Translations under genes and position numbers: made by a program | Shown here: in pieces, positions 7,749 to 21,519 of the stretch | Numbering within the stretch: the first letter of the stretch is position 1 | Layout of the letters: each line of letters opens with the position of its first letter | Notes under the pieces: generated by a model | What the model saw: the letters and a program-made list of their open reading frames with translations, nothing else | Told to the model about the DNA's origin: nothing | Databases searched by the model: none | NCBI GenBank assembly: GCA_965203905.1 | Contig: CBDBDQ010000005.1 | Span: forward strand, 6,176,001 to 6,240,000 | Source of the DNA: Spirochaetia bacterium | GTDB taxonomy: Bacteria; Spirochaetota; Spirochaetia; SZUA-6; Bin103 | DNA length: 64,000 nucleotides | Direction of reading: 5' to 3'

Positions 7749-8782
7749 GCGACACCTTCAGAGTAATCGGCGAGAACATACACACCACGCGCGTGCTGCG
7801 CCGCAAGGGCAAACGGATCAGCGACCTGGGCGACGGTACCCAGGCGGTCAACTACCGCACCAGGTCCGGCGAATTGCGCTACCTGCCCATCCCCGAGGAG
7901 TTCAAGAAGACCCAGGACTACGAAGAGGGCCGCGTCAAGCACGTGCAGATCGCCGTGCGCGGCGCCATGGACGGCGGCGAGCGGGCCGCCGAGGGCCTGC
8001 GCTACCTGCACCGACTGGCGGAGCGGCAGGAGGATGCCGGCGCCCACTTCCTGGACCTCAACGTCGACGAGATCTCCCTGCACCTGGAGCAGCAGCAGGG
8101 GGCCATGCGCTGGCTGGTGAACGCCATGATGCGGGCCAGCCGGCTGCCGCTGTCGATCGACTCCTCCAACGTCGACATCATCCGCGCCGGCCTGGAAGCG
8201 TGGAACGACGGCCCCGCTCCGGGCGGCCGGGGCCTTCTCAACTCCGCCTCCCTGGAGCGCCTCGACGCCCTCGACCTGGCGCGCGAGCACGACGTGCAGG
8301 TGATCGTCACCGCGGCCGGCGAGTCCGGAATGCCGAACGACACCGACGAACGGGTGGCCAACGCGTCGCGAGTGGTGGATGCGGCGCTGGCCCGGGGAAT
8401 CCCGGCGGGTGACATCTACGTCGACCCGCTGGTGTTTCCCATCGCGGTGGACCAGACCTTCGGCAACCATTGTCTCGAGGCAATCCGTGCATTGCGCAAC
8501 CGGTATGGTGCGGAGATCCACATCACCGGCGGCTTCAGCAACGTCTCCTTCGGGATGCCGGCACGGCGCCTGATCAACGACGTGTTCCTGCGCCTGGCGA
8601 TCGACGCCGGCGCCGACAGCGGCATCCTCGACCCGGTCACCAGCCACATCGACGGCGTCCTCGGCCTGGACCGCACGACCCGACCCTACCGGCTGGCCGA
8701 AGATCTCCTGCTGGGCAACGACCAGTACTGCGCGACGTTCATCCGCGCCCACCGCAAGGGGGAACTGATCAGCAATGACTGA
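7745..8782 (+). CDS. Pterin-binding methyltetrahydrofolate:corrinoid methyltransferase (AcsE/MeTr-like)
   Basis: VIGENIHTT, FLDLNVD, PLSIDSSN, LLNS, YVDPLVFPI, GFSNVSFGMP; ATGA overlap with metF. Confidence 0.85.
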   Translation: MSDTFRVIGENIHTTRVLRRKGKRISDLGDGTQAVNYRTRSGELRYLPIPEEFKKTQDYEEGRVKHVQIAVRGAMDGGERAAEGLRYLHRLAERQEDAGAHFLDLNVDEISLHLEQQQGAMRWLVNAMMRASRLPLSIDSSNVDIIRAGLEAWNDGPAPGGRGLLNSASLERLDALDLAREHDVQVIVTAAGESGMPNDTDERVANASRVVDAALARGIPAGDIYVDPLVFPIAVDQTFGNHCLEAIRALRNRYGAEIHITGGFSNVSFGMPARRLINDVFLRLAIDAGADSGILDPVTSHIDGVLGLDRTTRPYRLAEDLLLGNDQYCATFIRAHRKGELISND

Positions 8783-9059
8783 GTACCAGGTGCTCGCCTG
8801 GCGCGGCATCCCGGCCCAGGTGCGGGTCTCCGCCGCGGGCAAACGCATCTCCGGCCAGCTTCCGCCCCGCTACCAGGAAGAGATCGACCGCGTCGCCATG
8901 GAGGAAGGGCTCTACGGATCGGACGACTACCTGGAGCAGTGGAAATGGGGCCCGCGCACGCAACGAGCCGGGGACCCGCAGCAGGTGCTCGACGCCGTGA
9001 TCGCCGAACTGGTCGCCGACTGGGACCGCCGGTTATTCGGCGAGCCCGGCCCCGATTGA
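8775..9059 (+). CDS. 'Virulence factor' (PF13769-like) small protein
   Basis: WRGIPAQV...LPPRYQEEIDRVAM...GSDDYLEQW pattern; this family is commonly found next to folate/corrinoid methyltransferase genes. Confidence 0.78.
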   Translation: MTEYQVLAWRGIPAQVRVSAAGKRISGQLPPRYQEEIDRVAMEEGLYGSDDYLEQWKWGPRTQRAGDPQQVLDAVIAELVADWDRRLFGEPGPD

Positions 9060-11366
9060 ATCCAGCCGCTGCCGAATGGTAGCGGCTTCCTCGGCGGCGG
9101 CAGCGGCTCCCGCGGCGTCGCCGGCCTCCGTTCGCACGGTGGCAACGCTGCTGAGCCTGGCGGCGAGCTCACCCATCGTGTGCGGCGTCTCGCCCAACAC
9201 TTCCACCCAGCGCCGGAACAGCGAGAGAGACTCTTCCCACGCGGCCGCAGCCTGCTCGCGATCGGTGTCCCGCATTGCGCCGCCGAGGTCCGCAAGACTC
9301 GTCGCAAGGTCGGCCAGCGCCTCGGGCGTCTCCCCGAAGTCCGCAATCCGGCGGCGAAGCGCGACCGCCTCCTCATACGCCGCCACGCTTGCCGACAGAT
9401 TTCCGGCCTCCCGTTGGCCCATCCCGACACTCGCCAGGCTGACCGACAGGTCACGGAGCGTTGCCGGCGATGGACCCAACCCGTTCAGCAGTCGGCGAGC
9501 AAGAGTTGCGGACTCGTCGTATGCGTCCACGCTCCCTGCCGAGTCGCCGGTCTCGTGCCGGAGCCGCCCCACGCATTTCAGGCTGCTTGAGAGATCGCGC
9601 AGGGCCTGCGCTGTCTCGCCTTGCGAGATCAGGAGACGCCTGTGCAGCTTGAGCGCTTCCTCATGGGAAGCCAGGCTCGCCGCCAAGTCCCCCGCCACCT
9701 GCTGCACGAATCCGGCGTGGTCCAGAGAAACCGCGACCTCACGCAGGCTCTCCGGCGTCTCATCCATCGCCAGTGCTCGCTGGCGCAGGCCGAGAGCTTC
9801 CTGAAATGCCGCCGCGGCGCCCGTTACGTCGTGTCCTTCCAGGTGCGCGTTCCCCAGTCCAGTGAGGCTCGTGGAAAAGCCCCGCAACGTGCCGAGCGTC
9901 TCGCCGGTGGCTCCCATCAATCGACGATTGAGATCCACGGCCTCCTCGAATGCCGCCCGCGCCCGCGCGTGGTCTCCGCCTTCGAGCAGCCCGTTTCCGG
10001 CATTGTTGAGGAGGGCCGCCAACCGACGATCCCCCGCCGGGGACGGCTCCGTCTTTGCGAGCAGGCGACGACAGCAGGTAAGCGCCTCTTCGTGAGCCGC
10101 CCTGCTGCGGGCCAGATCGCCGCTACAGCGAGTCACCCTCCCCAGGCCGTCCAACGAGGCGACGAGGTCCGAAAGCGCCTGCGGAACCTCGCCGACCAGC
10201 TCCATCAGTCTGCGGCACAACGCGACGGCCTCTCCGTAGGCCGCTGCCGCACCCGCCAAGTCGCCGCGCGCGTGTCGCACCTCAGCCACACGCCACAGGC
10301 CTGCTTCCGTATCGCCCAGCGTCTGGGGCGTCTCGCCTTCTGTCTGCAGCAGCCGCCTGCGTATGGCAAGGGACTCCCCATAGGCGGCGTCACTGCCGTC
10401 CAGGTCACCGGTCTCCTGACGCAGGCTCCCGGCCAGCGCGAGGCTGGACGCCAGCTCGCGCTGCAATGGCGGAAGCGCATCGGCGTTGCCAGCCAACGAG
10501 CGCCGGAGCTGAATTGCTTCCCCTACGTGATCCAGTGCCGCGGCGATGTCACCGTCCGCACGCCGTGCCCTGCACAGCCACTCCAGTGCCTCCGCGGAGA
10601 GGCGGACCGACAGCGGTCGCAGCGTGGCTACGGCTTCTCGCGCCAGCTCGGTCGCCTGCCCGGCTTCGCCTTTGGCGAGCAATGCGTCGATTTGCCGAAA
10701 CTGCATCCTTCCCGGCGACGCCGGCTCATCAGCCGTCGCGCGCAGATCACGTGCCAGATCCGCCCCTTCGCCGTTACCGGCGGGCGACGCCACGAGTGGC
10801 GGCGGCAGCTCCATGACCACCGAACGAATCGACCACACGTCGGGCGCGGCAACGCGTGCCCGTGGTTTGATGGCAATGGGTGCGACCATCATCAGGCCAC
10901 CCTGGAGGTGGCGCCCCAAGGCGTCGCGCCGCTCGTTGAGCAGCAACAGGAGCTTGTCCCACGCCGCCGTCCACGGACCCGGCTGGTCTGCCAACCCTGA
11001 GGACCATGAAGACGGCGCATGGGGCAGGGCACGGTGGCCGCCATTTTCGGACCAGTCGGCACGAACCGCTTCGACCCAGACCAGTCCCTGCGCCGCCATC
11101 GCGGGCTCGAACAGCACCTGCAACAGTGAGCCCAACTCGTCCGGGGCAGTCGGCACCAACACCTGGACGGCACGGCTCCTGAACCTCAGGAGATGCTCGA
11201 TCCGTGTGCGAACCGTTGCGGCAACCTGCGGCGATTGGCAGAACAGAAAGCCGAGCCAGAATCCATTTGCCCACTCAATCTGCCGGCGAAGCCGCTGCCA
11301 CTGCGCCATGCCGACACTATCCAGCGCCGCAACTCGATCGTCGTTCTGCGCGGCAGGCGCTAGCAA
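9033..11366 (-). CDS. Tetratricopeptide repeat protein with N-terminal degenerate NTPase-like domain
   Basis: About 11 long (~48 aa) TPR-like repeats (RDLSVSL..G...GD..A...YEE..ALRRR); N-terminal LLNERRD...APDVWSIRS motif. Confidence 0.82.
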   Translation of the reverse strand: MLAPAAQNDDRVAALDSVGMAQWQRLRRQIEWANGFWLGFLFCQSPQVAATVRTRIEHLLRFRSRAVQVLVPTAPDELGSLLQVLFEPAMAAQGLVWVEAVRADWSENGGHRALPHAPSSWSSGLADQPGPWTAAWDKLLLLLNERRDALGRHLQGGLMMVAPIAIKPRARVAAPDVWSIRSVVMELPPPLVASPAGNGEGADLARDLRATADEPASPGRMQFRQIDALLAKGEAGQATELAREAVATLRPLSVRLSAEALEWLCRARRADGDIAAALDHVGEAIQLRRSLAGNADALPPLQRELASSLALAGSLRQETGDLDGSDAAYGESLAIRRRLLQTEGETPQTLGDTEAGLWRVAEVRHARGDLAGAAAAYGEAVALCRRLMELVGEVPQALSDLVASLDGLGRVTRCSGDLARSRAAHEEALTCCRRLLAKTEPSPAGDRRLAALLNNAGNGLLEGGDHARARAAFEEAVDLNRRLMGATGETLGTLRGFSTSLTGLGNAHLEGHDVTGAAAAFQEALGLRQRALAMDETPESLREVAVSLDHAGFVQQVAGDLAASLASHEEALKLHRRLLISQGETAQALRDLSSSLKCVGRLRHETGDSAGSVDAYDESATLARRLLNGLGPSPATLRDLSVSLASVGMGQREAGNLSASVAAYEEAVALRRRIADFGETPEALADLATSLADLGGAMRDTDREQAAAAWEESLSLFRRWVEVLGETPHTMGELAARLSSVATVRTEAGDAAGAAAAAEEAATIRQRLDSIGAGLAE

Positions 11367-12681
11367 GGACTACTCCGTTCTTGAATCAGCCTCACCTGTG
11401 CCTTGACCTGGTCCGCGATCAACGGATGAATATCATACCACTCGTCCCCGTTCCGATAACAAAGGGCAAGATGTGTGTCGAGGAACCGCGCCAGGACCGG
11501 CAAGCGGTCGGCACTTGACAATGAAATCTGATGAGTCGCGAAATCTCGGCCAACCACAAGGCCTCGTCATTGGCAACTGGAAGAAACTCCGTGCGTAGCT
11601 GGTCGATGGCCGCTTCGACCGTAGTGGCCGGCACCGGTAACCGCTGAGCTAGGGTCAACACGCCGCCCACGAGTCGCAGCAAGTCGCGCAAGTGCCCGCC
11701 GCTAGAGCAGATCAAGCGATCGAGCGCAGCCTGATCGGCCAACAGTCTGCGCCAGTCGCCGCGGGCCGCAACCACCCGTTCGATAGTCCGGTAGCTGCGT
11801 TCGATCCTGGTGCCAGCCTGGTCACGCAACTTGAATGCCGGCAACACCTTCACCCCGCCCGGTTCATACAGTGACCCAAGATTACCGTAGCTCACCTTGA
11901 GGTGTGGCGGGACAGTATAGATCACATGCCATCCAGGAAAGTGCAACTTATCGGCGTGGCTGACGAACAGGTGCTCGACCGAGCTTTGGACTTCCTGTGC
12001 ATTCACCGTAGTTCCACGAATATGTTCAATCGAGTCCAACAGCAAGACCAATTCGACGGGGGTGCTCTTGCGCCTCTCGATTGCCTCCGTGCACTTCTCG
12101 AAGTAGTCGTGCACCTCGTTCATCAGAGTGCCCAAGTGCCCGGCCATTCGTTGCTGCACGAGCTTCTTGAAATCGGGATCGGTCTTCAGGCTTGCCTTGA
12201 TCGACGCCGACACGCCGAGCGCGCCGGCCTTCACTTCCGAAATCTCTATCTTACCAGCGAACAGTCGTATCAGCCGGTCTCCCCAGCTCTGCTTCAGGCC
12301 GTCGTCCAAGAACCCCCGCCGACCGAGTTCCTCGTTCAGCGCTCCGCAGACAGCGAGCAGGAAGTCGGTCACGTCGAGCGGTGTCGACAGGTTCAGGTAC
12401 TGCTCCATATCGCACAACAGCACGATATAGTGGGTGGACTCCAGGCGGTGTTTCAGACGCCTGAGTTCTGTGCTCTTGCCAGTGCCGCGGAACCCCGACA
12501 GGAGCTGTACGCTTTCGCCGTGCGTCCACGAGATCGCCCGCGCCAACGCGTCCACCGGATCGAATCTGACCAGTTCAGGATCTTGATACAGTGGCACATA
12601 GCGCGGATCCTCGGGATCAAGAGGTGTTGCGCTCACCTGCCGAAAGAACTCACCGAGGAATGCGTATTCTTCACGTCTCAT
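11360..12681 (-). pseudogene. P-loop AAA+/STAND-like ATPase with a single frameshift near the 3' end
   Basis: Walker A GFRGTGKS, Walker B LLLDSIE, SGGHLRDLLRL. The family-type tail LCYRNGDEWYDIHPLI lies in another frame (ORF 11360-11557); shift at ~11540 (..ATT TCG CGA CTC vs GCG ACT CAT). Could be a sequencing error. Confidence 0.75.
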
Positions 12682-12693
12682 ACGGGGTTCGGT

Positions 12694-13779
12694 TCAAGGA
12701 CGACTCAGAAATTCCACCAGCTTGGTCTTGCGTTTGGCGTGGGCCAGGTCGAGGGCGGTTCGGCCGCCGGCGTCGCGCTTCTCCAGGCTGACACCGCGTT
12801 CCACCAGCAGGCGCACCAGCGGGACGCCGGCACCCGAGTTCACCGCCACGTGAAGGGCGGTCTCGCCGTTCTTGCTCCGCACCTCGTCGGGATCACAGCC
12901 GTGGTCCAGGAACCAGGTGACGCCCTTGAGGCTGCGCATGTTGACCGCGCAGCCCAGCGGGTTGTAGCCGCCGTGGTGCTCGGTGCCGCGGGTGCCGTTC
13001 ATGTCGACGGCGCCGTGGCGCAGCAGCAGGTCCAGGACGCCGAACTGGCCGTCGCAGGCGAGGTGGTTGACGGTATCGTCGTCGCCGAGGCGGCCGCCGC
13101 GCTGCAGCAGCAGTTCCACGATTCCGACGTTGTCGGACCAGCAGGCGTAATCCAACGCGGAGGACGGCTCGGCGCCATGGTCGAGCAGCAGCTCAGCAGT
13201 GGCGACCCGCTCCTCCTCGGTGCCGGCCACGGAACGTGCGCAGTACTGCAGCGGGAGCCACGCCCCGTCGCGTGAGTCGGCGTCGGCCCGCACGGCAGCA
13301 CCATCGGCCCCGGCCAGGACCGCCGCCAGATCCCCGTGTCGCGCCAGCACGGCCGCGGTGTACAGGTCCGGCTCGCGCGGCGCGTGCTCCAGCAGCAGCG
13401 GCAGGAACTCGGTGCAGCCGAACGCCGCCACCGCCACGGCGCTGTGCAGGTTCCAGGTACCACGCAGCATCGGGTCGGCGCCACGTTCCAGCAGTAGCTG
13501 CACGGTGGCGGTATGCCCGGGCGTCTTGGGCATGGTCTTCTTGTGCTCCACGGCGCGATGCAGCGGCCGATAGCGATGCCCCGTCGGTGCCAGCACGTTG
13601 ACGTCCGCTCCCTCGTCGATGAGAAACGCCACCACCTCGGGCTGACCGCCGAAGCAGGCGTTCATCAGCACCGACCAGTGACGCGAGATTTCCGCGTCCT
13701 GCGTGACTGCCACGCGTACGCTGTCGAGATCGCCTGCGTGCGCCGCCGCCGCAGCCCGTTGCGCCAACTTTCTGTCCAT
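12694..13779 (-). CDS. Ankyrin repeat protein
   Basis: [32 protein letters not shown]; start MDRKLAQ with GGGAG RBS. Confidence 0.9.
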
Positions 13780-13789
13780 TCGATTCTCC

Positions 13790-13870
13790 CACAACGCGCG
13801 ATCCCGTGCGCCTCGTACCAGTGTAGCTCCACCGTCCGGACGCTGCCACTAGGGACGCATCGTACATTCG
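13790..13870 (-). pseudogene. 3' remnant of small conserved 'ELHWYEAHG' protein
   Basis: [18 protein letters not shown]; paralogous to the remnant at 16045-16260. Confidence 0.5.
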
Positions 13871-13908
13871 TTGCAGGCCGGCCAGCCGCTCGGTCCGTCG
13901 AGTTCAGG

Positions 13909-14073
13909 TTAGTGCAGCCCTGGACGCGGCCGGTGCCGGTGTCGACGTCGATGCGGCGGAAGGCGCGGTCGGAGGCGGTGCCCGGCAGCAGCTTGATGTC
14001 GCCGGCCACCGGCACTGCCAGCCCGGCGCCGCGGTAGAACAGCAGGTCGCGGATCGGGAGGGTCCAGCCGGTG
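13909..14073 (-). repeat. Duplicated 3' end of fhs (copy of 16305-16470)
   Basis: Direct alignment by eye shows 7 substitutions and 1 indel over ~165 nt, including the stop codon. Confidence 0.92.
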
Positions 14074-14225
14074 CACGTCGGCTCCCGCGTCGATCAGGAA
14101 CGCGGCTACCTCGGCCCGGCCGGCGAAGCAGGCGTTCATCAGCACCGACCAGTGGCGGGCCACCTCGGCGTCTTTTTCACGGCGGCTCGCACACCGCCCA
14201 TTTCACCGGCATTCGCGGCCGTTTA
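14074..14225 (-). pseudogene. Fragment of a second copy of the ankyrin gene
   Basis: [47 protein letters not shown] matches residues ~13-60 of the intact ankyrin; frameshifted. Confidence 0.8.
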
Positions 14226-14429
14226 CAGGCTGGCGCATCACGCGGCCTACCAACTGCGTCATGGCCCGTCTTGCGGGGTAACTGTTGGCAACCAGCAATA
14301 ATGGGACAGTGTGAGAGGCGAGAGATCATGGGTCGGCTGGAGGTCTCGAAAGCTCCCTGAGGGCGCTGTTGTGCCGTCTTCATCGTTCGATCGTCTGGGC
14401 TTTCATCTCTTTTCTGCGTCGTGGGCCCT

Positions 14430-15377
14430 TCATTGGCGCAAGCGCCTCAGCGCGCGCAGCGCGCGCAGCGTGATCCATCGGTTCGGTTCTCCGGGAGCAC
14501 CGGCGATCTCCTCGTAGAGGGTGTCCTTGTGCCGCACATCTAGGCGCCAGCGTCCGTCAGGAAGCTGATGGCTTTCAATTGTCTCGATGGCTTCTGCCAG
14601 GCGCGGATCGTCCTTGAAGCCCGCATTCACCGCATATTCAAGGCCCCGCAGGACATCGTAGTGCCACAACGGAGGAAAGGCGAGGCGCCTCCAACTTTCG
14701 TCGATGACACCACCCGTGGAGAGCCGTCGGAGGAGGTACCGCTCTAGCAGATACTCTTCGCCACGCTCGCGGGCTTCCGTGACGGCCGAGTCTTTCCCGA
14801 AGGACTGCTCGTGTGCGAGCAAGCCCTCCAAGACGCAGATAGTCGTATGGAATGAGGAGCGCACGGAGCCGCGGAGCGCCTCACAGTTCCACCCACCATC
14901 CTCGAGCTGCTCGCTGAGCAGAAGATCCGCTAAACGGACGCTCGGTTTCCCAAAGTAGGCGCCGAGCGCCACGACGCGCCCGTTGATGCAGGGCTCTTCC
15001 TCCCCCTCAAAGAACGGAGAGTCTCCGTGCCACGGGCCCCAGGTCACGCTCGAGTGCACTAGCTCGATCGCGTGTCGAGTGCGATCGCTTTCAGGATCCA
15101 CGCCGAGATCACGCAGGTAGAGGAGGGTGTACAGGTTCGTCCACCAGAACGGGTGCGCTTCTCCATCGCCCCACTGCCCGTCTGGGCGCTGCTCCTCGAG
15201 CAGCCGTCGACCCCATCCCTCATGTGCCACGCGGGCACGCTCGGCGGCGACGTTATCGGCGTCGACGTCGGCTATATCTTGGAGGACTTGCCAGCGGATG
15301 GAGGGGTCTGAGTCAAGAAGCCAATCCAGCACCGAGGGGGCGGGGGGCAACGCCGTAGTGATTGTGTCGCGCCCCAT
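14430..15377 (-). CDS. Prenyltransferase/squalene-cyclase-repeat (alpha/alpha barrel) protein
   Basis: WLLDSDPSIRWQV, QRPDGQW, QLEDGGWNC, SSFHTT, WHYDVLRGL, QLPDGRW, NRWITLRALR. Confidence 0.75.
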   Translation of the reverse strand: MGRDTITTALPPAPSVLDWLLDSDPSIRWQVLQDIADVDADNVAAERARVAHEGWGRRLLEEQRPDGQWGDGEAHPFWWTNLYTLLYLRDLGVDPESDRTRHAIELVHSSVTWGPWHGDSPFFEGEEEPCINGRVVALGAYFGKPSVRLADLLLSEQLEDGGWNCEALRGSVRSSFHTTICVLEGLLAHEQSFGKDSAVTEARERGEEYLLERYLLRRLSTGGVIDESWRRLAFPPLWHYDVLRGLEYAVNAGFKDDPRLAEAIETIESHQLPDGRWRLDVRHKDTLYEEIAGAPGEPNRWITLRALRALRRLRQ

Positions 15378-15571
15378 TAGTCGAATCTCTCCGTTGTACG
15401 CAATCCGCTTGGCATGGCCGCGATGTAGGCCTGCATGGGTGCGTCGCCGTCGGCCTTCGCGATCTGGTGGTTGCCGCCCGCTAGGAGCTTGACGCCACCG
15501 CCCGTCCGCTCGGTGGACCTCATGGGGGCCTTCGTCGATTTGTTGGTCGTCTTGCGAGGCATTGCGTTCAC
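15377..15571 (-). pseudogene. Truncated DUF1801-family gene (N-terminus only)
   Basis: VKLLAGGNHQIAKADGDAPMQAYIAAMP is the usual start of this family; the ORF stops right afterwards. Confidence 0.6.
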
Positions 15572-15619
15572 TCCAATCTGCGTATCGGCGGGAGACCTAA
15601 CTTTAATTTCAGAAGCTAG

Positions 15620-15990
15620 TCACACGGCCCTGAACCCCTTGCTCCTTGGAACTGAGTGCTGTGCATCATAGTCTACTGCCTCCCGCAGCAACGCCTCAAC
15701 ATCGGTTTCGTTAGTCCCGTCGCCTTCGCGGATGTCTATCACCCGAAGCTTGTTTCCGCAAAGCCGGAGTCGAAGACATTGTTCGGATCGGAGAGCTTCG
15801 CTCCATGAAGAAAGGAAAGCTTCACCTTATCTTTTGAAGGCGTTGACGTTGGCGTACATCCCCTCGTGCGACCAGACAGGAGGCCCCCTCAACTTCCAAT
15901 CTTCTACAACTTCGGGGTCGACCTCGTGGATGATCCTGCGGACGATTGGGGTGGTTCTGAAACCTGCGAGGCCTTCTCTGACGATCCGAT
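15620..15990 (-). pseudogene. Frameshifted DUF1801/YdhG-like gene
   Basis: RRIIHEVDPEVVEDWK..PVWSHEG / DKVKLSFLHGAKLSDP / GNKLRVIDIREGD..EALLREAV across three frames. Confidence 0.7.
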
Positions 15991-15999
15991 AGCGATGAG

Positions 16000-16035
16000 C
16001 GCAGCGGCAGCCCGCTGCGCCAGCTTCCTGTCCAT
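16000..16035 (-). repeat. First 12 codons of the second ankyrin copy ([12 protein letters not shown])
   Basis: Same peptide as the start at 13779, with its own GGAGG RBS. Confidence 0.75.
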
Positions 16036-16044
16036 TCGTACCTC

Positions 16045-16260
16045 CGCCAGCTCGTACCTTGGTGCCGTGAGCTTCGTGCCAGCGTAATGCCACCGTACGG
16101 ACCCTGCCACCGGGGAGACGAATCAGCGCAGTCCCCTTCGGCACTGGCTGGCGCCCGCGTCATAACTCTCGCTCCCAGAAGGGCAGTACCCGCATGCCAA
16201 GGGCATTCGCGACGGTTCCGCCGCGGCGATCTCACCCCGAATCTCGAACCGTTCCGGCAC
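16045..16260 (-). pseudogene. Degenerate small 'ELHWYEAHG'-family gene
   Basis: VPERFEIRGEI... and KGTALIRLPGGRVRTVALRWHEAHG in shifted frames. Confidence 0.55.
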
Positions 16261-16304
16261 TCAATGGGCAGCGACGGGACCGCGCGCGCCGCGGGCAAGC
16301 TGCG

Positions 16305-18086
16305 TTAGTGCAGCCCCTGGACACGGCCGGTGGCGGTGTCGACATCGATGCGGCGGAAGGCGGGGTCGGAGGCGGTGCCCGGCAGCAGCTTGATGTCGCC
16401 GGCCACCGGCACCGCCAGCCCGGCGCCGCGGTAGAGCAGCAGGTCGCGGATCGGGAGAGTCCAGCCGGTGGGCCTGCCCTTCAGCGCCGGGTCGTGGCTC
16501 AGGCTGAGCTGGGTCTTCACCATGCAGGTGCCCAGATTCGCCAGCTCGGAGTCCTGCTCCACCGCCTCGAGCTTGGCCCGGGCCTGCGGCTGATAGCTCA
16601 CCCCGGCGCCGCCGTAGACCTCGCGGGTGATGCGCTCGATCCGCTCGCGCTGCGGCACCGCTTCGTCGTACAGGAAGCGGAACCGGGACGGCTGCGCGCA
16701 CGCCGCCACCACCGCCTCGGCCAGCTCCCGCGCGCCGGCGCCGCCGTGGCGCCAGTGGCGGCTCACCACGCAGGGCGCTCCGGTGCCCGCCACCGCGTCG
16801 CGGATCACCGCCACCTCCTCCTCGGTGTCGGTGTGGAAGTGGTTGATGCAGACCACCGGCGCCACGCCACTCGTGCGCACCGTATCCAGGTGCGCCAGCA
16901 GGTTCTCCACGCCGCGCTCCACCAGTCCGGTGTCCTGCTCGGTGTAGGCGCGGTCCAGCGGCCGCCCGGGCGCCACCCGCGGACCGCCGCCGTGCATCTT
17001 CAGCGCCCGGATCGTGCACACCACCACCGAGCAGTCGGGTACCAGGCCGCTCATCCGGCACTTCAGGTTCCAGAACTTCTCGAAGCCGATGTCGGCGCCG
17101 AAGCCGCTCTCGGTGACGTGGTAGTCGGCCAGCTTGAGTCCCACCCGGTCGGCGATGATCGAGGACTGGCCGATGGCGATGTTGGCGAACGGCCCGGCGT
17201 GCACCAGCACCGGCTGTCCCTCGATGGTCTGCATCAGGTTGGGGTTGATCGCCTTGGCCATGATCGCGGCCATGGCGCCGTCCACCTCCAGGTCCGCGGT
17301 GGTGATCGGGCTGCCGTTCTTGGCGTAGGCTACCACCATGCGTCCCAGGCGGGCGCGCAGATCCGCCAGGTCGGTGGCCACCGCCAGAATCGCCATCACT
17401 TCCGACGACACCGAGATCTGGAACCCGCTCTGCATCATCAGCCCGTCCATCTTGCCGCCGAGGCCGATGATGATCTCGCGCAGCGCCTGGGCGCTGAAGT
17501 CGATGGCCCAGCCGATGGCGACGTTGCGGGAGTCGATGTTGAGGCGCTGCAGCTTCCTTCGGGCCAGGGTCTTGTCGCCGTAGTTGGCCTCGTGCTGGAG
17601 GCGGCTGGTGAGCGCCACCATCGCCAGGTTGTGGGCGTTGGTGATGGCATCGATGTCGCCGGTGAGGCCGAGGCTGAGGTCGGCGAGCGGGATGCATTGC
17701 GCCAGGCCGCCGCCGGCGGCGGAGCCCTTGATGTTGAAGGTGGGACCGCCCGACGGCTGGCGGATGGCGCCGATCACGCGCTTGCCGATGGCCGCCAGGC
17801 CCTCCACCAGGCCCATGGTGGTGGTGGTCTTGCCCTCGCCAAGCGGCGTCGGCGTGATCGCGGTCACGTTTACGTACTTGCCGTCCGGCCGCTGTGCCAG
17901 CCGTTCCAGGATGCGCGCGTAGTCCAGCTTGCCGACGTGGTGGCCATGGGGCAGCACCTCTTCCGGCTGCAACGCCAGCTCGGCTCCGAGCTGCTGCACC
18001 CGCTTCATGTGCGGCTCCGCGGCAGCGCTGATCTGCCAGTCGGCCATGGTCGTGGGATCGAGTGAAGTGAGATCGGAAATGCTCAT
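16305..18086 (-). CDS. fhs: Formate--tetrahydrofolate ligase
   Basis: [57 protein letters not shown]; real start [11 protein letters not shown]. Confidence 0.97.
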
Positions 18087-18176
18087 TGCTCGGGCCCACC
18101 ATAGCAGATCGCGGGACCCGGAGCAGGCACCGCACGGGCTTTTGACCGCCGGCTGCGGAGCGGGCACTATCCCTGC

Positions 18177-19334
18177 GTGCAACTTCACTTGGTAGGCGGC
18201 TTTCTGGGCAGCGGCAAGACCACGGCGATCGCCAGCGCCTGCGAGCTGCTGCGCAGCCGCGGCCGGCTGCCGGCGGTGGTGACCAACGACCAGGGCGAGG
18301 TGCTGGTGGACACGCGGCTGCTGGCGGGCGCCGGCATCCCCACCGCGGAGGTGGTCGGGGGCTGTTTCTGCTGCCGCTACCCGGAGCTGGTGGAGCGCAT
18401 CGCGGCCCTGGCGGCGGCGGGCGCCGAGCACCTGTTCGCCGAGGCGGCGGGCTCCTGCGTGGACCTCGTGCGTACCGTGCTCAACCCGTTGCTGCGGCGG
18501 CGCGAGGTGGAGCTGGAGGCGGTGACCCTGTCGGTGCTGGCCGACGCGCGCCTGCTGGCCGACTACCTCGCGGGCCGCCCGCTGCCGTGGTCCCTGCCCG
18601 CCCTGCACTACCTGTTCGAGCGCCAGTTGGCGGAGGCGTCGCTGCTGGTGGCCACCAAGGTCGACCTGCTGGCGGCCACGGCGGGGGAGCGCGAGCAGCT
18701 CGCGGCGACGTTGCGGTCCGGCTTTCCGCGCCAGCGGCTCCTGCTGCAGGACTCGCGCACCGCGGCGGGCGTCGCCGGCTGGCTCGACCGGCTGGAGCTG
18801 GATTCGCGGGTCGCCGCGCGCGGCGACGCCCCCGCGCTGGCGCCCGGTGTGGAGGTCGACTACGAGAGATATGGAGCCGCCGAGGCCGCCCTGGCCTGGA
18901 ACGACCGGGAAGTCGAGTTGAGCGGCGTCGACGGGCGCGCCACGGAAGCGGCCCGGGCGGTGATCGACGGCGTGGCGGCCGCGCTGCAACGGCGCCGCGC
19001 CGCGATCGGGCACCTCAAGTTCCTGATCCGCGACCACTATCGCGACGCCAAGGTGAGCATCACGGGTCCCGACCTGCCGCGGCGCGACGCGCACGGGGCA
19101 ACCTGGCACGACCAGCTCCCGCCACTCACCGGGGACCGGGTGACCTTGATCGTGAACGCCCGCGTCGAAATGGAAGCCGCCGACCTGGAACGGCTCATCG
19201 ACACGGCGGTGGCCGATGCCGCGTCGAGTCTTGGACCTGGCGAGGCAAGCGCGGCGATACAGGTACGCACCCGAAGCCGCTCGGCGTTCCATCCCGCTTA
19301 CCCGGAGCCGGTTCATCTCGTCAGGCAGCGTTAG
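18177..19334 (+). CDS. CobW/COG0523-like G3E GTPase metallochaperone
   Basis: [39 protein letters not shown]. Confidence 0.85.
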
Positions 19335-19427
19335 CTTCTCAGCCTCCCGGCCAAGACGCCACTTGAAACGAAGCAAGATTATAGGGTGCACTTGCTGGAC
19401 ACCGTCTGGCCAACTCAGGAGGATGGC

Positions 19428-20584
19428 GTGAAGCGCATACACGTACGTGAAATCGGACCGATCGTCGATGCTCGAGTCGAGTTTGGGGACCTCACGGTAT
19501 TCGTCGGTCCACAAGCCACCGGAAAAAGCATTTTCTTCAACTCCTGAAATTGGCTGTGGACAAGTCAGTGATCCACGATCAACTGCAGCGATTCGGAATC
19601 GATTGGAACGACAAGCGAGACGGCTTTCTGGAGGTCTACTTCGGAGAAGGGATGGCCAAGTTGTGGTCGGAAGGCGACAGCAAGCTGTTCGCAGATGACC
19701 AGGAGGTCGAGTTTGCGCGCTACGCGGGTCGTCGTCCCCCACGATCGGTCGAGAAAGTGTCATACATTCCCGCCCAGCGCGTGCTCAGTTTCCGTGATGG
19801 CATCACGAGACCATTCACCGACTACCGGTCGGGGATCCCTACGTACTCCGCGCGTTCAGCGATCACATCCACCAGTTGGTGCAAAGCGAGTTCAGTCGCT
19901 CCACCGGAATATTCCCGCACAAAGGACACTTGAGTCTCGCCTTGATCCGACCACTGGAACAGCACGTCTTTGGTGGTTTCCGACTCGAGATGGAACAGGC
20001 GAAGTATCAGCGTCGTATCGTCTTTGCGGCGACGCTCCGGAACCTCGCTTCCATTCCTGGTCTGGTCGGCCGGACAAAGGGAATTCGTGCCGTTGTTGAT
20101 GGGTCTCTACCCACTCCTTCCTCCATCGGCCCCGTCGCGCGACGGTACCGTGACGTGGGTCGTGATAGAGGAGCCGGAGATGGGTCTGCACCCGAATGGG
20201 GTTGCTGCCGTACTCAATCTCGTATTGAAGTTGCTGGCAAGCGACTACCGAGTGTGCATCTCCACCCACTCGCCACATGTGCTCGACATCGTGTGGGCGC
20301 TTCGCTTCTTCCAGGAGCATGGTGCACAGCCGGCCGACGTTCTGGAGCTACTTGGTTTGAGGTCCAGCGCGGGTACCCGGGAACTTGCCGAGTGCGTACT
20401 GAAACGCACACTCCGGGTGCACTATTTCTCCCAGGCCGGTCACGTAAGGGACATTTCCAACCTGGATCCGTCCGCCGACAGCCTCGACGAATCCGGCTGG
20501 GGGGGCTTGACGGGAGGGTCCGGCAGAGTTGGCGATCTCGTAGCCCACGTAGCCGCCCGAAGGCAGCCCGTCGAGCGTTCGTGA
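19428..20584 (+). pseudogene. AAA_21/AAA_15-type ABC-like ATPase with multiple frameshifts
   Basis: GTG start after GGAGG; [53 protein letters not shown] spread over four segments (shifts ~19535, ~19835, ~20030). Confidence 0.82.
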
Positions 20585-20765
20585 GTTTCCAGACCGCCGT
20601 GCAAGCGGCTTCCGCTGCAGTAGCTGGCGCGTACCGACCCGGCAAGCAGGCTCTTCCGGGCCAGCACCGTTCGCTCGTGACTTGTGCCGATTCGCGCCGA
20701 CTGACCGGTAGCGTCAACCTGGATGCAGCATTGCAGGCAAGTCTCCCGAACGCACCACGATGGGC
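20581..20765 (+). pseudogene. Truncated partner gene of the AAA_21 ATPase
   Basis: GTGA overlap with the ATPase stop; GKQAL...LTGSVNLDAAL...PNAPRW, then low-information sequence. Confidence 0.5.
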
Positions 20766-20901
20766 ATCAATGCAAACTCACCTCAGCGCCGCCGCCTCAA
20801 CCAGAGCGGTCTGGGCATGCCACGGCGCCGGCTCACGCTGCCATGATCCGCCGGACGCGCCGCCCTCATATCGGTCGGCGTTCCACGTTATGATGGCGGG
20901 C

Positions 20902-21519
20902 ATGGCAGACTCCCACGAGAGCAAGTACTGCGACAAGCGGCAGGGCTTCTGGCGCGACACGTTCGGTGCCGCGTTGCCCTATGGCGAGTACCTCGCGTCC
21001 GGACCGGAGAACCACCGCAAGCGGTGGCAGACGATGGATCAACGGGTGCAGGTGGACGCCGCGCAGCGGCGGCGCCTCGGCCAGTTCACGCGGCGCATGA
21101 ACCTGTTGTGCTACAGCGGCATCTGGTGCGGCGACTGCGTACGCCAGGGGCCGATCCTGCACCACCTTGCGGCCGCCGCCAATGAGGCCGGCGGCACCCA
21201 GGTGGTGGACCTGCGCTTCGCCGAGCGCGTCGACGACAGCGAGTTGGCCGACGAGCTGCGCATTCTCGGCGCGCTGCGGGTACCGGTGACCGTGTGTCTT
21301 TCGGAGGACTTCTTCGAGGTGGGGCGCACCGGCGACCGGATGCTGGTGACCTACCGCCGCAAGGCGCAGCGCGAGCTCGGTGCGGCCTGCGACGTGGGCC
21401 TGGTGCCGCCTCCCGAGGCAGAGGTCGCCACCGAGGTGGAACAGTGGCTCGACCACCTGGAGCGCATGCAGTGGATGCTGCGCCTGGCGCCGATGCTACG
21501 CGCGCGCCACGGCGACTGA
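20902..21519 (+). CDS. Thioredoxin-family protein (Thioredoxin_9-like)
   Basis: WCGDC motif, RVP cis-Pro loop, LSEDFFEV. Confidence 0.82.
   Translation: MADSHESKYCDKRQGFWRDTFGAALPYGEYLASGPENHRKRWQTMDQRVQVDAAQRRRLGQFTRRMNLLCYSGIWCGDCVRQGPILHHLAAAANEAGGTQVVDLRFAERVDDSELADELRILGALRVPVTVCLSEDFFEVGRTGDRMLVTYRRKAQRELGAACDVGLVPPPEAEVATEVEQWLDHLERMQWMLRLAPMLRARHGD

Follow-up and report, generated by a model that had tools for sequence, protein, structure and literature searches.

A conserved two-gene module of an AAA_16-type ATPase and a repeat-bearing partner, with a decaying copy in a Spirochaetia genome

A 64,000-nt stretch of a Spirochaetia bacterium genome (assembly GCA_965203905.1, contig CBDBDQ010000005.1, positions 6,176,001 to 6,240,000 of the forward strand; hereafter the window, in which all coordinates are given) carried on its minus strand an ATPase gene followed by the gene for a 777-aa partner protein. 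These two genes made up a real, conserved module that was coupled, co-inherited, and occasionally fused; its family had members in Myxococcota, Acidobacteriota, Proteobacteria, Actinomycetota, Planctomycetota, and Cyanobacteriota, and the window copy was decaying through a frameshift in the ATPase gene and a repeat insertion in the partner. We give about an even chance to the reading that the module is a bipartite STAND-like switch, with nucleotide-binding module and sensor placed on different proteins.

Architecture and conservation of the gene pair

Loci were collected by two scans of one-genome-per-species contigs (60 plus 80; L057 and L125 were one place fetched twice). In a uniform recount with hidden Markov models (HMMs), an open reading frame (ORF) carrying the N-terminal domain of the partner (N-domain) lay directly downstream of the ATPase in 133 of the 140 loci, and the facing ends of the ATPase and N-domain models lay a median of 1 nt apart (interquartile range -25 to 33); separate counts of the N-domain in the next ORF gave 46/60 loci by BLAST and 77/80 by HMM. 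The misses included L057/L125, which had a different partner, together with L113 and L119, in which the N-domain was absent within ~6 kb downstream. ATPase and N-domain were encoded by separate genes in 131/133 pairs and by one frame in L051 and L087, both from Actinomycetes metagenome-assembled genomes (MAGs); a search for longer proteins returned no ATPase-TPR fusions, just eight fusions to ABC ATPases (see below). The pairwise distances of ATPase and N-domain were correlated (r=0.83, 43 loci; 0/999 permutations as high), and since kin share their history, this correlation showed co-inheritance, not binding.

A second intact pair (L076, G000:C5:6611676-6614903) was located ~427 kb away in the same genome: its ATPase was 28% identical to that of the window, its stop and start codons overlapped by 8 nt, its partner contained a very regular 40-aa repeat array, and pairs of this type were also present in four congeners. 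Five large myxobacterial genomes had one to seven ATPase matches each, which for four of these genomes came to ~2-5 distinct copies. Carriers of an intact natural pair included Sorangium cellulosum So0157-2, Cystobacter fuscus, Trinickia mobilis, and Methyloversatilis. An earlier note on this DNA had described a coupled gene pair and mentioned similar pairs in cyanobacteria and myxobacteria: the pairing was borne out by the counts above, and relatives were found in myxobacteria and, more distantly, in cyanobacteria.

The ATPase matched Pfam AAA_16 (E 7.3e-8; 33.5 bits vs a cut-off of 32.6), and the matches to NACHT (E 0.023), nSTAND_NTPase5 (E 0.0013), ATPase_2 (E 0.026), and AAA_22 all scored below their Pfam cut-offs. 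It displayed the P-loop of STAND NTPases, whose defining features were reportedly set out by Leipe and co-workers in 2004, in the form of Walker A GFRGTGKST and Walker B LLLDSIEH; across 18 homologues, G63, G66, G68, K69, S70, T71, D216, and E219 were invariant (Walker A GxRGxGKST; Walker B hhhhDSxEH), as were W415, Y416, H419, P420, and L421 at the protein end [W(Y/F)..HP(L/V)I]. Window-clade ATPases contained SGGHLRDLL and the paralogue L076 GGHPRDLL; in our motif reading, these stretches look similar to the GxP motif of STANDs, and the EWY..HPL end to their winged-helix His motif. The window ATPase ended, in a shifted frame, with FLDTHLALCYRNGDEWYDIHPL, presumed to be a winged-helix end. 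Its first ~55 residues were conserved and matched no separate domain model; in our reading they belong to the nucleotide-binding module. Among 8000 candidates scored, 495 were homologues at E<=1e-3, the best 120 of which were 328-486 aa long and named just 'hypothetical protein' in source records. No NCBIfam match was obtained for the window proteins, and none of five ATPases, among them those of the window, L057, L076, and P0023, was assigned to a PADLOC family at E<=0.001.

The N-domain (~170-190 aa; alignment A3, 47 sequences) possessed the near-invariant residues W27, F32, W87, W126, N134, R137, P165, D166, and W168. Pfam yielded no consistent N-domain family across the 47 members even at E<=10, PADLOC had no model for it, a PDB sequence search found no relative of it below E 0.01, and the Atlas neighbours of homologue P0130 were unnamed or TPR clusters only. 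A profile search against 1.84 billion representatives (clusters at 50% identity) recovered at least 2257 at E<=1e-3, 1324 at 1e-10, and 380 at 1e-30, and in all 150 among the matches listed the N-domain stood at the N-terminus of 178-866-aa proteins. Its consensus, in our own reading of the alignment, alternated hydrophobic runs with amphipathic stretches in the way that five beta-alpha units would give.

The tail of the window partner held 10 regular repeats between ~residue 305 and residue 777, set at intervals of 46-48 aa, along with ~2 degenerate ones, and Pfam identified it as a TPR protein (TPR_10, 1.6e-18; TPR_12, 5.1e-14; TPR_2, 2.9e-8). Behind the N-domain, the tails of 105 complete partners had a median length of 401 aa (<60 aa in five and >800 aa in seven); the window-type repeat was matched by 73/101 tails, and the partners of L053 and L055 had Metallophos plus NACHT tails in its place. 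In plasmids of Nostoc, Calothrix, and Acaryochloris, distant ATPase homologues (E ~1e-43) were followed by WD40 proteins, the N-termini of which matched the N-domain core (E 2e-5, 8e-7, and 3e-4). In the Calothrix plasmid locus L163 (5875-13181), two tandem ATPase paralogues preceded the WD40 partner, the second being encoded in a 699-aa frame whose residues 43-442 make up the ATPase.

The protein features proposed in the earlier note were correct in each point that could be checked: (i) the motifs GFRGTGKS, LLLDSIE, SGGHLR, and terminal WYDIHPL were found in the ORF scan, and the STAND-like assignment was upheld as far as Pfam AAA_16 and the motifs go; (ii) the partner had no Walker A in residues 1-225; and (iii) the suggested ~11 TPRs corresponded to the 10 regular and ~2 degenerate units with Pfam TPR matches.

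Decay and origin of the window copy

Three co-directional minus-strand genes (ankyrin, ATPase, and partner; Table 1) were located between one-carbon metabolism genes, with MTHFR-like, pterin-binding, and PF13769 genes on one side and the formate-tetrahydrofolate ligase gene on the other. The ATPase was split into a 420-aa ORF (12681..11419) holding GFRGTGKS, LLLDSIE, and SGGHLR and a 65-aa ORF (11557..11360) carrying WYDIHPL in a different frame, ahead of the partner ORF (11366..9033). The 420-aa ORF was 95% identical to the intact 439-aa homologue P0001 over 91% of the query, and the 65-aa ORF matched residues 381-438 of P0001 at 91% identity; intact homologues of 439 aa ran on through ...AEISRTHQISL... 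into the second window frame. DNA alignment with L001, the closest public locus, placed a 1-nt deletion (CGCGGAC to CGCGAC) at ~11536/11537, and after its repair the ATPase stop codon TAG (11362-11360) overlapped the partner start codon TTG (11366-11364) by 7 nt, in agreement with the overlap proposed earlier.

Table 1. Features of the ATPase-partner locus in window coordinates
Feature	Position	Strand	Basis and remarks
Ankyrin-repeat gene	12694..13794	-	Pfam Ank_2 2.1e-35; co-directional, 12 nt upstream of the ATPase gene
ATPase gene, part before the frameshift	11537..12681	-	Residues 1 to ~382 of ~439; AAA_16, Walker A/B
Deletion site in the ATPase gene	11536..11537	-	One G of CGCGG gone; alignment with L001 and window sequence
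ATPase gene end, last ~58 codons and stop, out of frame	11360..11536	-	65-aa ORF, residues 381-438 of P0001
Partner gene start and conserved N-domain (residues ~20-205)	10752..11366	-	Alignment A3, 47 sequences
In-frame 48-nt insertion in the N-domain	10996..11043	-	Copy of a ~57-nt dispersed repeat
TPR-like array, ~12 units of ~48 aa, and stop	9033..10694	-	Pfam TPR_10, TPR_12, TPR_2; repeat spacing

Contigs from sequencing runs matched the window with 0 gaps and 0 other letters over 11000-12700 (X13 record 9) and 11386-11750 (X14 record 21), which excluded a consensus error in the assembled genome. X13 is possibly the source sample, and X14 came from the same study, so that their agreement does not count as support from an independent study; X1 record 6 ended at 11536, too near the deletion to count. 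A programmed frameshift was rejected, as a slippery site was absent and the relatives read straight through.

The 48-nt insertion was missing from three same-genus orthologues and from all 46 other aligned N-domains, and it coincided with a depth spike and loose ends in the run contigs. The corresponding ~57-nt dispersed repeat (here ~10999-11057) had 32 matches in its own genome, the window copy included, three and four copies in two congeners, and none in three other relatives; the 48-nt insert folded no better than shuffles (z 0.42), with no hairpin beyond chance.

Among the genomes of 40 relatives, the ATPase profile (E<=1e-20) matched only three, all from the same genus as the window genome and all with a common gene order, in which the pterin-binding and PF13769 genes were followed on the other strand by partner, ATPase, ankyrin, and formate-tetrahydrofolate ligase genes. 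These three differed in the state of the module: (i) G008 had an intact ATPase frame of 442 aa; (ii) in G006 the ATPase was reduced to residues 1-64 and 385-442, and the partner was broken too (379-aa open frame, residues 345-492 missing); and (iii) in G009 the ATPase was reduced to residues 369-442. The decay of the window copy, which had gone unseen in the earlier note, thus consisted of the frameshift and the N-domain repeat insertion, and the ATPase genes were deleted in two congeners; the window module probably no longer works.

GC content was 0.576-0.602 across the ATPase gene (500-nt windows starting 11250 to 12250) vs 0.672-0.704 over 9000-10999 and 0.704-0.720 over 12750-13749, so the relative GC poverty ascribed to this gene was confirmed; GC at third codon positions (GC3) was 0.72 for the ATPase, 0.76 for the partner, and 0.81-0.94 for six neighbouring genes. 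The ATPase was found in 4/41 relatives' genomes, all of one genus, and in 0/200 other genomes (>=85% complete) sampled across the phylum. Because the ATPase was confined to one genus among these genomes and GC3 was low, the module is read as having entered horizontally at the base of the genus, and it is undergoing loss now.

Proposed mechanism and comparison with known systems

In the proposed switch, the first gene would encode a stand-alone, STAND-like AAA_16 ATPase built from P-loop and helical domains with a winged helix at its end, and the second, translationally coupled gene would encode the N-domain plus a variable repeat array (TPR in the window, WD40 in the cyanobacterial relatives, other modules in rare cases, and no array at all in some). 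We infer that the N-domain would dock the partner onto the ATPase, at the place held in one-piece STANDs by the arm between nucleotide-binding module and sensor; in MalT, according to the available part of PMC4381067, this arm keeps the nucleotide-binding module closed. The repeats would bind a ligand, probably a protein, and this binding would control or release nucleotide exchange and ATPase assembly, with the output possibly provided by an effector encoded elsewhere, by the added domains of some partners, or by the N-domain itself. The module would most likely serve a conflict or immunity-type use. If this proposal is true, a large family (the N-domain clusters counted above) splits the NLR/STAND nucleotide-binding switch and its sensor onto two proteins that are joined by a domain described in no library; the family would be a simple system for studying the control that a sensor exerts in trans over a nucleotide-binding module, and the window contributes a natural series of stages of decay from a single genus.

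Comparison was made with one-piece STAND/NLR-like NTPases (MalT, AfsR, Avs, bacterial NACHT, and Apaf-1-like proteins). The pair shared with them an AAA_16-type P-loop module, a putative GxP-like helical motif and a putative C-terminal His-containing end (motif readings only), and TPR/WD40 arrays as the variable part, and the fused L051 and L087 recreated their order of nucleotide-binding module, linker domain, and repeats. Unlike them, the pair kept nucleotide-binding module and sensor separate in nearly all cases, had an N-domain without family match in the linker position, lacked both an N-terminal effector and a DNA-binding domain, and had an ATPase far more conserved than its partner. As for Avs and bNACHT, no PADLOC Avs or NLR model was matched, and clear defence-type genes made up only 7/87 nearest neighbours.

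The iSTAND ternary systems, as described in the available part of Kaur et al. 2020, consist of MoxR, vWA, and inactive STAND proteins and carry effector or EAD domains; as far as that part goes, they resembled the pair in the idea of a degenerate STAND-type partner acting with an active AAA+ ATPase and in their occurrence in bacteria with complex lifestyles. The window pair, however, was flanked by ankyrin and one-carbon metabolism genes, with no MoxR/vWA and no EAD, and the 20 upstream genes scanned across loci included DUF58/vWA only in L059, EAD1 only in L030, and no MoxR; the N-domain as a STAND remnant is a candidate reading only. Septu PtuA/PtuB, PD-T4-4, HEC-01, and PARIS were likewise two-gene ATPase-centred operons, but the window ATPase was not ABC-type and matched none of their models, and the pair had no nuclease, its usual partner being an N-domain-repeat protein. 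MADS (mad1-mad8) was similar in that the ATPase matched mad8 weakly (E 0.0083) and some relatives lay near a methylase. Identity with MADS, which needs MAD6, MAD7, and MAD8 according to the part of its description available, was rejected: the mad8 match was confined to the P-loop region, and the other mad genes were absent from the window. No characterised system was matched in the PADLOC 2.0 and NCBIfam scans, in line with the earlier note, which knew of no function assigned to such pairs.

Full-text literature searches, and the available portions of two Aravind-group papers and of a 2026 STAND census, yielded no description of such an ATPase/N-domain pair. In the portion available, the census selected clades by sensor/effector domains in the same protein and dropped C-terminal regions <400 aa, criteria by which split forms would tend to go unnoticed; this ATPase clade may still be listed in the supplementary tables of the census.

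A variant of the proposal, in our view rather unlikely, takes the N-domain as a degenerate copy of the ATPase core without Walker A/B, forming a pseudo-heterodimer with the active ATPase, perhaps donating the conserved NERR arginine to the ATPase active site, and thus being a bacterial counterpart of paired sensor/helper NLRs. Comparison of the N-domain with the ATPase family by hhalign gave E 0.083, 0.47, and 0.13 (the last with the ATPase insert removed) vs 0.49 for the reversed control, which was not significant; the best alignment was collinear, with EWA.GFWLGF over EWT.GESVQLLSGF at the Walker A strand and GGLV.AAPP..KPR over HVVYTVPPYLKVR, a likeness serving as a lead only. If this variant is true, a constant, highly conserved 'helper' ATPase would be served by interchangeable sensors, and the architecture would have been overlooked because STAND censuses seek sensors and effectors on the same polypeptide.

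Genomic context and rival readings

The ankyrin gene was found upstream of the ATPase only in L001 among the 60 loci of the first scan and in all three same-genus loci, and it is a lineage-specific companion outside the conserved pair. No conserved third gene existed, as upstream and downstream genes were unrelated across loci. PADLOC (E<=1e-5), applied to the 87 nearest neighbours of 46 paired loci, returned seven Type III methylases, all of one clade, plus three mad3 and three mad8 matches, the latter six most likely being ABC-transporter ATPases. In this gammaproteobacterial clade (seen at L011, L015, L017, and L048 with L072-L074), the ~1100-aa Type III-type methylase gene overlapped the partner gene by 4 nt and the pair headed an island ordered as pair, methylase, Fic, two small genes, ResIII helicase (~1100 aa), Schlafen/AlbA_2-HATPase_c_4, and ParA; paralogous methylases without the pair occurred elsewhere in the same genomes. 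A tblastn marker check of the 140 loci revealed no further locus with a marker gene adjoining the pair (L125 being L057), its other matches being Metallophos/NACHT-like stretches that lay in L026 and within the partner gene of L121.

Defence-type associations of other kinds were also present: (i) eight metagenomic proteins (P0288-P0295, 847-1062 aa) with the whole ATPase fused to an ABC-type ATPase that scored as HEC-01A (1.6e-51) or PtuA (1e-48 to 1e-65), with no N-domain; (ii) a PD-T4-4_A-like gene (E 2.3e-102) downstream of the ATPase in L057, PD-T4-4 being a nuclease-NTPase defence pair in the part of its description available; and (iii) plasmid copies of the pair beside NB-ARC and TIR genes in Acaryochloris pMB06 and beside a CHAT gene and an IS6 element in Acidisarcina pACPOL1. 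This context leans to conflict systems and does not establish defence. As to the defence models and defence islands that the earlier note suggested looking for, PADLOC matched neither protein, and the neighbour enrichment was weak, holding mainly in the one methylase clade. In a Polyangiales MAG (L030:103-1725), a 540-aa EAD1 protein gene overlapped the ATPase gene start; the ATPase and partner there had no second EAD1.

Several results weighed against the switch reading. Column identity in the ATPase averaged 68% across phyla (18 homologues), which is unusually high for an immune sensor, and PDB sequence searches with the ATPase returned no relative below E 0.01. Pfam, PADLOC, and NCBIfam scans found no further or effector domain in either window protein, consistent with the earlier remark that no nuclease, TIR, or other effector domain was visible; STAND membership is suggested by a marginal AAA_16 score together with motifs, and the pair was not filed as a confirmed STAND member, the sensor in cis and the effector being absent and the model score marginal. 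The 20 upstream co-directional genes scanned were mutually unrelated and mostly of housekeeping types (ABC permease, JmjC, radical SAM, sigma factor, aminotransferase, CLC channel, AMP-binding enzyme, FG-GAP, and helicase, besides the DUF58/vWA and EAD1 proteins named above), the methylases among the neighbours came from a single clade, and no relative was detected in 50,697 phage records or a viral contig collection. The G009 partner was whole (769 aa) though its ATPase was lost, and partner dN/dS (nonsynonymous over synonymous substitution rates) was 0.26-0.34, beside 0.18-0.23 for the ankyrin gene and 0.15-0.32 for the PF13769 gene; this means that either the damage is of recent date or the partner is still useful once the ATPase is gone, and the partner may accordingly have a role of its own.

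These results bore differently on the rival readings. An anti-phage or anti-mobile-element system, in which the TPR partner would sense a phage protein and the ATPase would assemble and then trigger growth arrest or recruit an effector encoded elsewhere, is possible and on balance doubtful. It would account for the methylase/Fic/ResIII/Schlafen-AlbA_2/ParA island in 7/46 paired loci, the ABC ATPase fusions, the gene next to the L057 ATPase, the plasmid neighbours, the patchy distribution with repeated loss, and the several distinct copies per large myxobacterial genome; a rough binomial test (8/140 loci vs a published null of 0.0153) gave P=0.0015, but the seven methylase loci were one clade, so that this figure is overstated. 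The lack of a PADLOC model for either protein, the second set of 80 loci without any new marker-adjoining locus, the housekeeping character of the upstream genes, the empty phage and viral searches, and an absent effector combined with a highly conserved ATPase all speak against it. The last of these points would instead fit a non-immune ATPase with a TPR adaptor, e.g., a switch acting on host proteins in assembly, in regulation, or in a chaperone-like way; large-genome bacteria with complex lifestyles commonly have such modules. The mostly housekeeping neighbourhoods, the purifying selection on a partner that stayed open without ATPase in G009, and the 5/105 partners with little beyond the N-domain point the same way; nevertheless, the very patchy distribution with horizontal spread, the repeated decay in one genus, the variability of the repeat arrays, the presence of several divergent copies in a genome, the fusions to defence-type ABC ATPases, and the want of a conserved third gene pointing to a client pathway make this adaptor reading quite unlikely.

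The N-domain might itself be the output, as an enzyme or toxic domain that the ATPase would check or activate and the repeats would only tune: it was the sole constant part of the partner, its near-invariant polar residues N134, R137, and D166 lay within NERR and PDLW motifs, and stand-alone N-domain partners existed. Most near-invariant positions were aromatic or Pro, however, as in a structural or interface domain, and PDB, Pfam, and Atlas searches gave no likeness to any enzyme family, leaving this reading improbable. Chance neighbours or an assembly artefact, for which the broken ATPase frame and the metagenome-type genome with 7.9% estimated contamination could be adduced, were refuted by the pairing in 133/140 loci with two fusions, the distance correlation, the synteny kept in three congeners, and the exact match of contigs from two runs; the probability left to them is negligible.

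Other observations in and around the window locus were as follows. A promoter/terminator scan gave one promoter-like and four terminator-like sites, no more than in shuffles; Rfam had no match within 8000-21500; and the two tRNA genes of the window were both away from the ATPase-partner island. The stretch in which the formate-tetrahydrofolate ligase gene (3' end) meets the ankyrin gene (5' end) was duplicated (13590-14172 and ~15900-16400) in segments of 86 nt at 95%, 55 nt at 78%, and 109 nt at 80%, and the two copies flanked a ~2.4-kb insert with a 315-aa ORF (15377..14430) having weak squalene-cyclase-like matches; this ORF was unmatched in the loci of three congeners, in which the ligase and ankyrin genes were 51-410 nt apart. 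At 19335-20584 on the plus strand, an ABC-type ATPase gene resembling the PADLOC candidate PDC-M56A (E 1.4e-64 over the last 204 aa) was split over at least three frames, with its Walker A piece at 19335-19547, and it is a second decayed defence-type gene, ~7 kb from the ATPase-partner pair. A 1152-aa minus-strand ORF (16305-19763) matched formate-tetrahydrofolate ligase over residues 574-1151 only, and the plus-strand ORF at 18105-19334 (loop motif, GC3 0.91), which lies over its 5' half, is probably the real gene there.

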